DNA of 64,000 nucleotides from Escherichia phage alia. Positions 8,037 to 36,954 of this stretch are shown one piece after another. The position numbers and the translations under genes are program-made. Under the pieces are notes generated by a model. That model was not told the origin of the DNA, did no database searches, and saw nothing but the letters and a program-made list of their open reading frames with translations. Location: the sequence record NC_052655.1; one strand, written 5' to 3'. How positions within the stretch are numbered: the first letter of the stretch is position 1; each line of letters starts with the position of its first letter.

Positions 8037-8095
8037 ATCTAACCTCTTTTGTTACGATGCACACAGAGTACCAGAAATTAATTTCAGATCAAGTA

Positions 8096-8123
8096 TTGAC
8101 ATACTGTTTTATTGTGCTAATCT
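8096..8123 (+). promoter_or_regulatory. sigma70-type promoter for the rightward operon
   Basis: TTGACA, 16-nt spacer, TAATCT; in the divergent intergenic region 8037-8155. Confidence 0.45.
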
Positions 8124-8155
8124 TAATGTATACACAAATGAGAGGAGATAAACGA

Positions 8156-8707
8156 ATGCAAAACATCGATCTTACTTGGATAGAAGCCAAAGAAGCAATG
8201 TTAAAAGGCAAACGCGTTAAACATAAATACTTTTGCGAAGGAGAATGGTTTGAAATGCGTAACCGATCCATTGTAGATGAAAAAGGGAATGACATGCAAC
8301 AATGGTTCAAAAATGAAATTTGGCAGGGAACAGGTTGGTCTGTAGTTGAAGAGCAGCCTAGCTCAAGCGCACTGTTTAGCCCTATTATGTATCGCGTTAT
8401 CGGTGCTTTAGTTGTTGATCACGGGATTGCAGTGGAAAAAGAATGCTGGGAAGAGGTATCTTTTTTCAACCTGGCTTCTTATGCAAAAAGCCATATGCAC
8501 TTGTTTGAAGAAGGGGATGAATTTGTTCTTCGTATGCGATATGGCAAAGAATTCAGATTACCACTTGATAATGATGTAGACACTGTTGTAAAATGGTTAG
8601 CAGAGCATTACGCTTACGATGCAATTTGTGGTCGCAGCTTCGGCAACGAACGCTGGGACATGATTTGTGAAAAATATGATTTTGAGCCGGAGTACGGAGT
8701 TTTATAA
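8156..8707 (+). CDS. hypothetical protein, N-terminus tentatively DUF2829-like
   Basis: Track ORF trimmed to Met34 (GAGGAG RBS); N-terminal LTWIEAKEAMLKGKRVKHKYF pattern recalled from DUF2829 family, from memory only. Confidence 0.5.
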   Translation: MQNIDLTWIEAKEAMLKGKRVKHKYFCEGEWFEMRNRSIVDEKGNDMQQWFKNEIWQGTGWSVVEEQPSSSALFSPIMYRVIGALVVDHGIAVEKECWEEVSFFNLASYAKSHMHLFEEGDEFVLRMRYGKEFRLPLDNDVDTVVKWLAEHYAYDAICGRSFGNERWDMICEKYDFEPEYGVL

Positions 8708-8958
8708 TGTTAAGTATCAAACCTAAAATGATAACAGAAGACGAAGCAGACTTTATTTTCAAATGTGGACGTGTATGGAGAGAATTCACAAAAGGGAATG
8801 AAGTGGTTGTTGTTGTCGAACACAAGATATCTATCCAGGATCTGTTTGGACAATATGTTGATGTTATTAAATTAGGTATTGACAAGGGTTTAGTTGAGGT
8901 GTTAACATTAGATCAAGTTGAAGCAGAGCACCTCGATAAAGTGGTGGTTGAATTTTAA
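8707..8958 (+). CDS. hypothetical protein
   Basis: Track ORF 83 aa; start overlaps upstream stop. Confidence 0.5.
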   Translation: MLSIKPKMITEDEADFIFKCGRVWREFTKGNEVVVVVEHKISIQDLFGQYVDVIKLGIDKGLVEVLTLDQVEAEHLDKVVVEF

Positions 8959-8978
8959 AATACAGACGGGAGAAAGGT

Positions 8979-9152
8979 ATGAGTTTCTTTGTTACAGTAT
9001 TTATGGCTATCTGGATTGTAGTCTCACTCGTTCTTTTCCTGGTGGGTTGTCTGGAAGAGATTAAGAAAGCGGTTATTTGCGGTTTCTTTGGCTTTATTAT
9101 CTCTCCTGCCTGGATGTGGTTCTTCATTATGATTGGTTTCCTTAAAAGGTAA
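8979..9152 (+). CDS. small membrane protein (57 aa, two hydrophobic helices)
   Basis: Hand-called ORF MSFFVTVFMAIWIVVSLVLFLVG..; GGGAGAAAGG RBS; below track cut-off. Confidence 0.45.
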   Translation: MSFFVTVFMAIWIVVSLVLFLVGCLEEIKKAVICGFFGFIISPAWMWFFIMIGFLKR

Positions 9153-9166
9153 GTGAGGAATAAAGA

Positions 9167-9604
9167 ATGAGTAAAACAAACGCAATTACAGATAAAGCAA
9201 CTGATGTACTTCTGAACATGGTTAACGTCACTATTCAAACAATGAGTGATGTTGTAGAGTTTGGAAAACAACAAATTCCAGAAGTAATTCATCAATTATT
9301 AATGTGGAAAGCAGTATCCGCAGGTTTATGGCAATTTTTTGGTATTTGCTTTATGTTTATTGCTTTTATTGCTGTGCGGAACCTCATAAAAGCAATTAAA
9401 GATAAAGAATGCCTGTGGTCACGAGATCGCTATGGTGGAGTATCTGCTTTGCCTATTGTTGGTCTTGTTGTCTCTGCTTTCTTTTTCCTTTTAGGATTTA
9501 TTATTTTCTTTTCGAATTTCGATTGGCTAAAAATTATTATTGCACCAAAAGTGTATCTGATTGAATTTGCTGCTGATTTAATTCGTTCATCTCAACAAAG
9601 ATAA
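9167..9604 (+). CDS. membrane protein
   Basis: Track ORF 145 aa; hydrophobic segments; GTGAGGAA RBS. Confidence 0.55.
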   Translation: MSKTNAITDKATDVLLNMVNVTIQTMSDVVEFGKQQIPEVIHQLLMWKAVSAGLWQFFGICFMFIAFIAVRNLIKAIKDKECLWSRDRYGGVSALPIVGLVVSAFFFLLGFIIFFSNFDWLKIIIAPKVYLIEFAADLIRSSQQR

Positions 9605-9616
9605 AAAGGGGTTAAA

Positions 9617-10744
9617 ATGAAATACACTATTTATGGTGATATTGTAAGTGTAAATAAAGATATGGGCGTGGAATCTAACTATCTTCCACCTGGATTCTAT
9701 ACTGTTAGTCGTGATCCCCTTGGCAATTACTTTTTAAGCCGTGGTAATCTAACAGGTGTACCGGATGTTCTGTATGGTGAAACAGAAAAACGAGCAAATC
9801 ACGTTATTCGTACATTCCATCGCCGGAGTGCACAAGGTAAAAATACAGGTTTGCTCCTGACAGGAACTAAGGGCAGTGGTAAAACTATGTTAGCCAAACT
9901 CATTAGTCGTGACCTTGTAGAAGAAGGTATTCCAACTATTATGGTTACTCAAGCCTACAGTGATGCTAATTTCATTGAACTTATTAGCAAGATCACCGAC
10001 AAAGCAGTGATTATTTTTGACGAATTTGATAAAGTATATGAGAAGAAACAAGATCAAGAAGCACTTCTCACTTTGTTAGATGGTACTGGCAGTGGTAATA
10101 AACTGTTTATTCTAACTAAAAACAGTGGCTTTATCTCTGAATTCTTTCTAAATCGTCCTAGTCGTGTGTTTTATAATTTTAATTATGATAAAATCTCACT
10201 AGAAACTATGATTGACTATTTAGATAAAAACCTGGATAACAAAGCACACTTTGATAATTTCCAAAGACTTTGGGATGTAAGTTTAGAGTTGTCCTTTGAT
10301 GTGATCCAAGGTATAGTAGAAGAACTTAATTTCTACCCTGATTTATCCTTTAAAGAATGCATCTCTATGATGGGCGTTTCTTTAGGTGGTGGTAATAAAT
10401 GGGATATTAGCAGTGTTGTTATTAATGGAAAACTTCAGAAAGTTAGCTGGGTATCTAGTTGGCATAACTTCACACCTGCAATCTTTTTAGGTGGTTCGTG
10501 CACACTGGACGTGTACTTGTCATCTCCAAGTGATGCAGACTCTAAAGAAGCCCTTGCTAATAGCTCTTACGTGGTTTTTGATGATGAAGGCGATGCTCGA
10601 ATTCCATTGAATGCGACAAAAATGAAAGCAGATCTTATTACAGGCGGTAAAATCGTTGTGTTTAGTGATGATCCAGAAGATTCTTTCCGTATTGTTCTGG
10701 AACCAACTATCACCAATGGTGCAACTTTGGCAAGTGTGTTTTAA
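9617..10744 (+). CDS. AAA+ family ATPase
   Basis: Walker A GTKGSGKT, Walker B IIFDEFD; 375 aa. Confidence 0.7.
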   Translation: MKYTIYGDIVSVNKDMGVESNYLPPGFYTVSRDPLGNYFLSRGNLTGVPDVLYGETEKRANHVIRTFHRRSAQGKNTGLLLTGTKGSGKTMLAKLISRDLVEEGIPTIMVTQAYSDANFIELISKITDKAVIIFDEFDKVYEKKQDQEALLTLLDGTGSGNKLFILTKNSGFISEFFLNRPSRVFYNFNYDKISLETMIDYLDKNLDNKAHFDNFQRLWDVSLELSFDVIQGIVEELNFYPDLSFKECISMMGVSLGGGNKWDISSVVINGKLQKVSWVSSWHNFTPAIFLGGSCTLDVYLSSPSDADSKEALANSSYVVFDDEGDARIPLNATKMKADLITGGKIVVFSDDPEDSFRIVLEPTITNGATLASVF

Positions 10745-35905: not shown

Positions 35906-35914
35906 GGAGGCAAT

Positions 35915-36202
35915 ATGGAACTAGTACAAGAAGTTTATGAAAAACTAAAAGAAGAGAATCTTGATTGGCCTGAACATGCTCTTATTGTCGTCAAAGATAC
36001 TAATGGTGAAATAAAATTCTCAAGTGTAAGTGAAGACGATGTTGTTTTAAGTCCTACAGGATATTATATGAGAGGTGTTACGTGTCTATTCAACACCAAA
36101 GTGTATCCTGAAGTTAAACTTAGTTACGGTGAACCTGATCATCCAGAAATCGTTACACGTAATGAATATGAAAATTATTATTTTGCTCGTGAAAGCAAAT
36201 AA
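35915..36202 (+). CDS. hypothetical protein
   Basis: Track ORF 95 aa; GAGGAGG RBS. Confidence 0.55.
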   Translation: MELVQEVYEKLKEENLDWPEHALIVVKDTNGEIKFSSVSEDDVVLSPTGYYMRGVTCLFNTKVYPEVKLSYGEPDHPEIVTRNEYENYYFARESK

Positions 36203-36210
36203 GGAAAACT

Positions 36211-36534
36211 ATGCAAAAAATAAACACTGGTTCTCGTCCTAAACAGAAGCAAACAAAAGCAAGGGTATCTTATGTTGATAACTCTTGTTATAATTTTAAA
36301 AATGTTAAAGAAGTCATCATTGACGAAAAAGAAGGTTTGATTCACATTTCATCTGAACGTTTGAAAGGTAGTGTTACTCTTCGTGAGAATGTATCTATAC
36401 CTATGAAAGTTGTGGTTACACTCTGTGTTGATAAGCCAGATGTTGTTAACTATTATGTGTTCCGTGATAGTTGTATTTCATCACATAATAAGATTTTTAA
36501 ATCTTCGCACGTTAAAACAAAACACATTGTATAA
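36211..36534 (+). CDS. hypothetical protein
   Basis: Track ORF 107 aa; AAGGAAAA RBS; terminator follows. Confidence 0.55.
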   Translation: MQKINTGSRPKQKQTKARVSYVDNSCYNFKNVKEVIIDEKEGLIHISSERLKGSVTLRENVSIPMKVVVTLCVDKPDVVNYYVFRDSCISSHNKIFKSSHVKTKHIV

Positions 36535-36540
36535 CACATA

Positions 36541-36565
36541 AACCCGCTTCGGCGGGTTTTCTTGT
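36541..36565 (+). terminator. rho-independent terminator
   Basis: AACCCGC-TTCG-GCGGGTT then TTCTTG. Confidence 0.6.
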
Positions 36566-36619
36566 ATGTATGCTCTTTATCTGTTATAAACACTTTTAGC
36601 ATAAACAATAGGAGGTATT

Positions 36620-36841
36620 ATGTCTGTAGTTGTAGAAGGTAGTATTGGTTTCTTAGTAGATAATCCTCACCCTTTCGTGGTTAAGGTTCATATTCAAGAA
36701 AAGGTAAGCAACAATACGTGGCTGTGCTTGTTAGATAGTAAGATACACTCTTATACAGAGGTTTATCTTCACACTTGGCAAATTGGTACAATAACAGCAG
36801 AGGATGAATTGATAATTGAACTATATGAACGAGATCTATAG
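36620..36841 (+). CDS. hypothetical protein
   Basis: Track ORF 73 aa; TAGGAGG RBS. Confidence 0.5.
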   Translation: MSVVVEGSIGFLVDNPHPFVVKVHIQEKVSNNTWLCLLDSKIHSYTEVYLHTWQIGTITAEDELIIELYERDL

Positions 36842-36920
36842 ATGACTTTACTAGAGAGTATTGTAGTGTTAATCATCTTTATCATTATTGTCATAGGATA
36901 TTTTACAGAAGACTAAAATA

Positions 36921-36954
36921 AAGCCCCTAGAAGCGATTCTAGGGGCTTTTGTTT
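36921..36954. terminator. bidirectional rho-independent terminator at convergence point
   Basis: AAAGCCCCTAGAAGCGATTCTAGGGGCTTTT; T-run on both strands. Confidence 0.6.

Follow-up and report, generated by a model that had tools for sequence, protein, structure and literature searches.

Does the region between about 8 and 37 kb of the Escherichia phage alia genome stretch considered here form one rightward block of expression, and can its two ends be used to place genes of unknown function in early or middle expression classes? The stretch, hereafter the window, comprises 64,000 nucleotides (nt) of the record NC_052655.1, numbered from its first letter. An original prediction, made from these letters, had one intergenic region at about 8100 as a divergent start and a hairpin at 36921-36954 as a convergent terminator, and considered both useful for assigning expression classes. 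This finding is right in its broad lines and of a kind already known; for expression classes, it is too coarse. Both sites are plausible as regulatory boundaries because the divergent spacer is conserved and carries promoter-like sites on both strands, and a sister genus has a terminator at the same convergent junction. However, they delimit no expression class, since promoters cluster in 14.2-23.7 kb, the sub-blocks named A, B and D in Table 1 are promoter-poor, and the terminal repeat reported for the related phage BME3 maps inside the span. Judged from the sequence, the outer boundaries are sound and of use, but they bracket at least five predicted units, and the span between them would be a mosaic. 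The explanation as a whole, two boundaries enclosing a mosaic, is given a probability of about three in four. What the analysis shows are sequence features, how far these are conserved and where indels break; promoter activity, termination, expression timing and the place of the DNA ends in this genome are predictions drawn from them.

The source of the window is a phi92-like virulent Escherichia coli (E. coli) myophage. Megablast of the window leads to this group (Justusliebigvirus, Stephanstirmvirinae), with phage Paula (LR865361) being 97.2% identical over 12500-37000, and PaulScherrer and similar relatives matching at about 95% over 7000-12000. Large coliphages of this group normally have boundaries of this type, and the terminators have already been annotated in a near-identical genome: Paula, about 97% identical over the 24.5-kb stretch compared, has the same hairpins at the same junctions, and the stretches retrieved from its record carry the terminators as annotated features and no promoters, cassettes, gaps or terminal repeat. 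An analogous case is rV5, also a large myophage with few long same-strand gene blocks, for which transcription units were deduced from gene layout, bidirectional promoters were expected and, at some junctions, found where blocks diverge, as were bidirectional terminators where blocks converge, skew changes follow gene orientation, and a "non-coding" box free of open reading frames (ORFs) is present (Kropinski et al. 2013, PMC3606486). Unlike the phage considered here, rV5 belongs to Vequintavirinae, and its coordinates and junction sequences are non-homologous.

The divergence of leftward and rightward genes from one intergenic region is borne out. The leftward coding sequence (CDS) starts at 8036 and the first rightward one at 8156, the GC skew changes from negative to positive at about 8 kb, and the same divergent pair is annotated in Paula, phi92, EmilieFrey, phAPEC8, ESCO13, anhysbys and Mt1B1_P17. 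Column identity within the spacer reaches 87% across Justusliebigvirus and Phapecoctavirus, and the roughly 500 nt around it are 70-74% identical to Phapecoctavirus. The promoter elements of the spacer are conserved above background, with TTGACA, the TG and three positions of the -10 hexamer (1, 2 and 6) being invariant in seven phages of two genera. The two -35 hexamers lie 3 bp apart and match the consensus at 6/6 and 4/6 positions; both -10 hexamers match at 3/6 positions here and at 4-5/6 in relatives, most of which have TAAGAT as the rightward -10, the leftward one being TATCAT in Phapecoctavirus. The spacer promoters are candidates backed by conservation, not by score. It is proposed that the spacer would carry two back-to-back host sigma70 promoters, each with a 16-nt spacer and a weak, TG-extended -10; one of them would drive the leftward operon that includes the helicase, and the other the rightward operon with the ATPase.

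The same spacer could also be a regulated control region, in which a protein binding the near-palindrome CAGAAATTAATTTCAG and the conserved block would make one or both operons delayed, that is, middle. This near-palindrome (8072-8087) takes up the spacer between the leftward -35 and -10 and is for the most part conserved, the intergenic spacer is more conserved than the genes that flank it, the -10 elements are weak in this genome, and the whole region stands outside the early cassette family of sub-block C, all of which fits regulation. However, no second copy of CAGAAATTAATTTCAG was found in the window, no candidate regulator was identified, and the better -10 hexamers of the relatives fit plain sigma70 use. 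We consider regulation of this kind possible but doubtful, and plain use of two sigma70 promoters is preferred.

As for the other boundary, the convergent hairpin with T-runs on both strands was recovered at 36920-36949, close to its predicted position, and the GC skew turns from positive to negative at about 37 kb. It has a perfect 13-bp stem with 6 GC pairs and the 4-nt loop GCGA (36933-36936), its tails being TGTTTGCATT on the + strand and ATTTTAGTCT on the - strand; the T/U-rich tract 3' of the stem reads ...GGGGCTTT TGTTTG on the + strand and ...GGGGCTTT ATTTTAG on the - strand. Its minimum free energy (MFE) is -23.3 (+) and -21.2 (-) kcal/mol, with z values of about -4.4 on both strands and none of 200 shuffles equalling it, and a whole-window scan ranks it as the strongest terminator-like hairpin in the 64 kb. 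It lies 3 nt past the stop codon of an ORF of 24 amino acids (aa) and 67 nt past that of an 85-aa leftward gene. The junction is alignable within the genus only; its stem is invariant in five relatives, except for one base in muut, and its loop varies. In ESCO5, from the sister genus, an unrelated 10-bp bidirectional hairpin occupies the same junction, the order there being Sir2-like gene, terminator, small gene, bidirectional terminator and convergent genes. The design of the junction is conserved between genera, and its sequence is not. The predicted role is that of a two-way intrinsic terminator, which would stop both transcription streams and prevent antisense read-through. Taking into account that these streams already meet the hairpins at 36540-36559 and 37292-37311, the central one would mainly end two short terminal units.

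It has to be noted that the terminator loop occurs among the relatives as GCGA, TCGC, TCAC or GTGA, which are reverse-complement pairs and suggest a loop inversion at an inverted repeat. This would suit a palindrome acting mainly at the DNA level, as a cruciform or a recombination hot spot, and it has also been considered that the palindrome may be an RNA 3'-end stabiliser. However, the anatomy is canonical on both strands, with a GC-rich stem set between an A-run and a T-run, directly after a stop codon; a different hairpin of the same design stands at the ESCO5 junction; and similar designs follow other genes, two other hairpin sequences being reused exactly within the window. A primary role other than termination is accordingly judged improbable.

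Between these two boundaries, the claim of one uniform rightward block over 8156-36916 does not hold, as the span contains a leftward gene, two ORF-poor gaps and internal terminator-like hairpins at 10760, 18753, 22962, 24135 and 36540. The median intergenic gap is 78 nt in sub-block C versus 6-13 nt in the other blocks (9 nt for D and E together). Exact TTGACA hexamers on the + strand number 19 in the 9.9 kb of sub-block C, against 0.2-0.5 per kb elsewhere, and 20 of the 34 strong + strand sigma70 matches of the window fall within 14.1-23.7 kb; consensus promoters are few in the tightly packed 8156-12768 and 25941-36534. A single rightward expression block, launched at 8.1 kb, ended at 36.9 kb and of one temporal class, would agree with the 72 of 73 annotated Paula CDSs that lie on one strand across the span and with a GC skew that is positive over most of it, but the picture is already contradicted by sequence features, namely strong T-tailed + strand hairpins (10760, 22962, 24135 and 36540), a conserved leftward gene with leftward promoter-like sites at 13.4-13.9 kb, the confinement of the twenty strong sigma70 matches to one stretch, sub-blocks of different composition and a reported terminal repeat at 25280-25620, and is thus highly improbable.

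Under the mosaic explanation, the packed operon-like units A and B would be followed by a noncoding gap that has a leftward gene and leftward promoters of its own, and then by sub-block C, in which most genes would have a private consensus promoter and a 5' hairpin. On present evidence, sub-block C alone bears immediate-early hallmarks, and its genes are likely to be immediate-early. A second noncoding gap, which probably holds the ends of the virion DNA, would precede a long series of small, closely packed genes. Upstream of genes in the blocks other than C, no shared non-sigma70 motif was seen, and the T4-late-like motif TATAAATA has 6 occurrences in the window, unrelated to gene starts.

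The hallmarks of sub-block C reside in a family of promoter/hairpin cassettes. A hidden Markov model (HMM) built from 13 promoter regions retrieved 14 of them by nhmmer (E-values 1e-20 to 2e-5), all on the + strand and, in a search of the window, none outside 14201-22560. Each consists, in order, of an AT-rich upstream stretch, TTGACA, 16 or 17 nt, TAnnnT, a GC-rich hairpin, a ribosome-binding site (RBS) and ATG. The hairpin begins about 7 nt past TAnnnT (for example GGCGGGAAAtggTTTCCCGCC or GGGCGGCAatagTGCCGCTC), and MFE folding gave a GC-rich stem of 8-10 bp in 12 of 13 folded cassettes, with total MFE values from -12.9 to -20.3 kcal/mol for 70-nt segments. RNAalifold recovered only 4 pairs because MAFFT fails to align the indel-rich stems, and for this reason single-sequence folds were relied on. 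The hairpins lie downstream of the -10 and no T-run follows them on the + strand. By its anatomy, the cassette hairpin is therefore not an intrinsic terminator, since it stands near the predicted 5' end of the transcript and lacks a T-run; given the general background on 5' stem-loops and RNase E, we presume that its predicted role is to stabilise the mRNA. The indels between the window and muut all end in cassettes (13965|15020, 16219|16488, 16896, 17181|17277 and 17620|17909), and it is proposed that sub-block C would evolve by recombination between them.

These cassettes resemble the promoter-early stem-loop (PeSL) cassettes of the T4-type phages RB49 and phi1 (Arbiol et al. 2010, PMC2839356; Comeau et al. 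2014, PMC4122927). Both families are repeats of about 100 nt with an AT-rich stretch, a consensus sigma70 promoter, a GC-rich stem-loop and an RBS, both flank small ORFan genes in a variable region, and in both the indels of relatives end in cassettes. In contrast, there is no sequence homology between the two, and the PeSL stem-loop has been shown to be a terminator or attenuator, whereas the hairpin found here, downstream of the -10 and without a U-tract, is like a 5' mRNA hairpin. On these features, the cassettes are best read as a PeSL-like shuffling system outside T4-type phages, and the region from 14.2 to 22.6 kb is the best candidate for immediate-early genes and gene shuffling.

The second gap bears on the layout in another way. 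Direct terminal repeats of 342 bp have been reported for BME3 (PMC12210895), a phage 98% identical to the window in gap 1, and the homologue of this repeat lies in gap 2 (Table 1). Provisionally, the virion DNA ends of the phage considered here would thus probably be found inside gap 2, within the supposed "rightward block". If the repeat holds here, sub-blocks C and D would lie at opposite ends of the virion DNA, C reading toward one end and D away from the other. The annotation of Paula cites phi92 genes gp205-gp248 and then gp002-gp050, so the origin of the phi92 record falls inside the reviewed span. No evidence of use on the genome ends came from the points at which the records of ETEC-TG, R7 and phiWec187 start. 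As a separate observation, the three best copies of the motif AAAGGGGTGTGT in the window (12795, 25615 and 25693) are all at gap edges, one lying at the right-hand end of the repeat reported for BME3; at 2 mismatches, this motif is not enriched in the window.

Several points weigh against the reading of two promoter and terminator boundaries around a mosaic. Both spacer -10 hexamers are poor in this genome, and a consensus promoter scan called neither promoter, as a 3/6 match is all that these hexamers offer. In the terminator stem, compensatory changes cannot show because the relatives that can be aligned at the junction are at least 95% similar. The position of the terminal repeat depends on one paper about a relative, BME3, whose record has odd extra partial copies of 24815-25620, and the records of other relatives start at unrelated points. 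Finally, a literature search found no transcriptome for this phage group. The practical value of the result is a negative one. The boundaries alone only tidy the annotation, and, for the approximately 75 unknown small genes, 8-37 kb is not to be treated as one temporal unit. More weight falls on the inner boundaries, namely the terminator-like hairpins at 10760, 22962, 24135 and 36540, both gaps and the cassettes at 14.2-22.6 kb.

Table 1. Coordinates of the features discussed (window numbering; a point in the strand column marks features without a single strand).
Feature	Position	Strand	Basis or remark
Leftward gene block, 19 tightly packed ORFs	259-8036	-	UvrD-like helicase at 259-2034; Paula_0102-0114 all on the same strand
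Divergent intergenic spacer, 119 nt	8037-8155	.	Conservation alignment
Leftward promoter candidate	8065-8092	-	TTGATC 8092-8087, 16-nt spacer, TG 8073-8072, TACTCT 8070-8065
Rightward promoter candidate	8096-8123	+	TTGACA 8096-8101, 16-nt spacer, TG 8115-8116, TAATCT 8118-8123
Sub-block A, five packed genes	8156-10744	+	Last gene encodes an AAA-type ATPase (9617-10744)
Internal bidirectional terminator-like hairpin closing sub-block A	10760-10781	.	Paula terminators 021/022
Sub-block B	10819-12768	+	CapR-domain/T5orf172 protein (465 aa) and NADAR-domain protein (183 aa)
Gap 1, ORF-poor	12769-14297	.	Repeats, Fur-like boxes, noncoding element, leftward 88-aa gene
Three AT-rich direct repeats, 67-75 nt, 71-73% identical	12968-13187		Left of the Fur-box cluster
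Four clustered Fur-like boxes, gap 1	13205-13300
Conserved noncoding element	13298-13583	-	Read on the - strand
Conserved leftward gene, 88 aa, phrog_19316	13581-13847	-	Annotated as Paula_0094
14 cassettes of about 95 nt, before small genes	14201-22560	+	HMM search
Sub-block C	14298-24120	+	GC about 0.40, high AT skew
Terminator-like hairpin	22962-22990	+	Hairpin scan and folding
Terminator-like hairpin closing sub-block C	24135-24155	+	Hairpin scan and folding
Gap 2, AT-rich (GC 0.32-0.34), ORF-poor	24156-25940	.	Origin of the phi92 record here
Fur-like boxes, gap 2	24370, 24428 (24370-24442); 25285 (25280-25298); 25479 (25474-25493)		Perfect match at 25285
Homologue of the BME3 342-bp direct terminal repeat	25280-25620	.	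Feature DTR-L, alignment, blastn
Sub-block D, about 34 small, tightly packed, mostly abutting genes	25941-36534	+	Few scattered sigma70-like sites
Penultimate bidirectional terminator-like hairpin	36540-36559	.	Hairpin scan and folding
Sub-block E, 73-aa gene and 24-aa hydrophobic ORF	36620-36916	+	ORFs, PHROG search
Bidirectional intrinsic terminator hairpin (predicted)	36920-36949	.	Paula terminators 006/007, one per strand
Small leftward gene, 85 aa, between Sir2-proximal terminator and central hairpin	37017-37274	-
Terminator-like hairpin after Sir2-like gene, end of leftward metabolic block	37292-37311	-	Hairpin scan

Gap 1 holds the leftward gene that interrupts the span, and no credible rightward gene was found in it. 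By tblastn, 143 records cover at least 80% of the 88-aa query, with 96.6% amino acid identity in Phapecoctavirus and down to 40% in Klebsiella phages, the gene being far more conserved than its neighbours; Pfam and PHROGs searches assigned it no function. This gene is directly followed by a promoter-like site (13578-13550) whose -35 and -10 enclose a hairpin. The conserved noncoding element of gap 1 is nearly identical in Phapecoctavirus (13300-13600), with scattered differences only and flanks at about 72%, and is also present in Klebsiella phage 05F01, in PVP-SE1 (Vequintavirinae) and in 15 IMG/VR contigs; its conservation thus extends across Stephanstirmvirinae and into a second subfamily. 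On the - strand, the order of its parts is a conserved promoter (TTGACA/TTGCAA, a hairpin in the spacer and TATACT/TATAAT/TATAGT), about 95 near-invariant nt, two TGTAAAGA repeats, a second promoter-like site and a Fur-like palindrome. In muut, repeat regions are annotated slightly to the right of the three direct repeats at 12968-13187, over the cluster of Fur-like boxes.

A structured RNA was considered for this element and is not claimed, because it folds like shuffled sequences and shows little covariation. Folding of 13296-13545 was no better than shuffles (z -0.3 and +0.3 for the two strands), and RNAalifold on 15 homologues gave only -19 kcal/mol, with one clearly compensatory pair by eye. 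Rfam searches of gap 1 at E <= 1 returned chance-level matches only. The element could be an unstructured RNA or a DNA element, for example a transcription-activated origin beside the repeats of about 70 nt.

Both gaps also contain sequences resembling the binding sites of the host regulator Fur, here in the 7-1-7 reading of the 19-bp Fur box consensus, for which clustering of host sites has been described (Chen et al. 2007, PMC2189734). With up to 2 mismatches to the motif TGATAATnATTATCA, 9 boxes were found in the window against 1.05 expected, a number that none of 100 shuffles reached, and 8 of the 9 are in the two gaps. The 19-mer with the perfect box starts exactly at the start of the BME3 terminal repeat. 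The boxes are retained in gap 1 of Phapecoctavirus, and they terminate the noncoding element in the 15 IMG/VR contigs and in PVP-SE1. As in E. coli, the eight sites are clustered, with no more than 2 mismatches to 7-1-7 and one perfect match; unlike host Fur boxes, they stand in ORF-poor gaps of a virulent phage, with no visible overlap with strong promoters, as no strong sigma70 match overlapping them was found in the gaps. The gap-1 cluster gave no blastn match to E. coli genomes, and no paper on Fur boxes in the virulent coliphages of this group was returned by a literature search.

It has been considered that the two ORF-poor gaps may be the real control centres of the genome and recruit host Fur, an idea suggested by these boxes that we regard as unlikely. 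If it were true, origin firing, packaging or DNA entry would involve Fur or a mimic of it made by the phage; in another version, Fur would be titrated by the phage DNA as it replicates, and host iron uptake would be de-repressed. Through the Fur arrays and the gap-1 element, replication or packaging of the phage could be tied to the iron status of the host. A comparable array was observed in the T5-like phage Gostya9, about 7.5 kb into its genome, where a noncoding stretch (record 6907-8179) carries no annotation. It consists of tandem repeats of about 23 nt with Fur-like cores AATGAGAAtnATTC (570-830 of locus L014), and adjoins the DnaA-box-like TTATCCACA.

For the genes adjoining either outer boundary, Pfam and PHROGs searches gave no function. 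ARAGORN detected no transfer RNA (tRNA) or transfer-messenger RNA (tmRNA) in the window, and no Rfam family was found in the whole window at gathering thresholds. In sub-block B, the 465-aa protein has five CapR-homology repeats and a T5orf172 domain, and the NADAR-domain protein is encoded next to it. The 24-codon ORF of sub-block E (36842-36916), which ends 3 nt before the terminator, would encode the hydrophobic peptide MTLLESIVVLIIFIIIVIGYFTED and is unannotated in the relatives checked. Among the terminator-like hairpins, one 20-nt sequence occurs identically at 36540 and 40925 on opposite strands, and another at 48577 and 61664 on the same strand. Beyond the central hairpin, 44 nt (36980-37023) share 88.6% identity with an unannotated site found in over 130 records of Stx-converting lambdoid phages.

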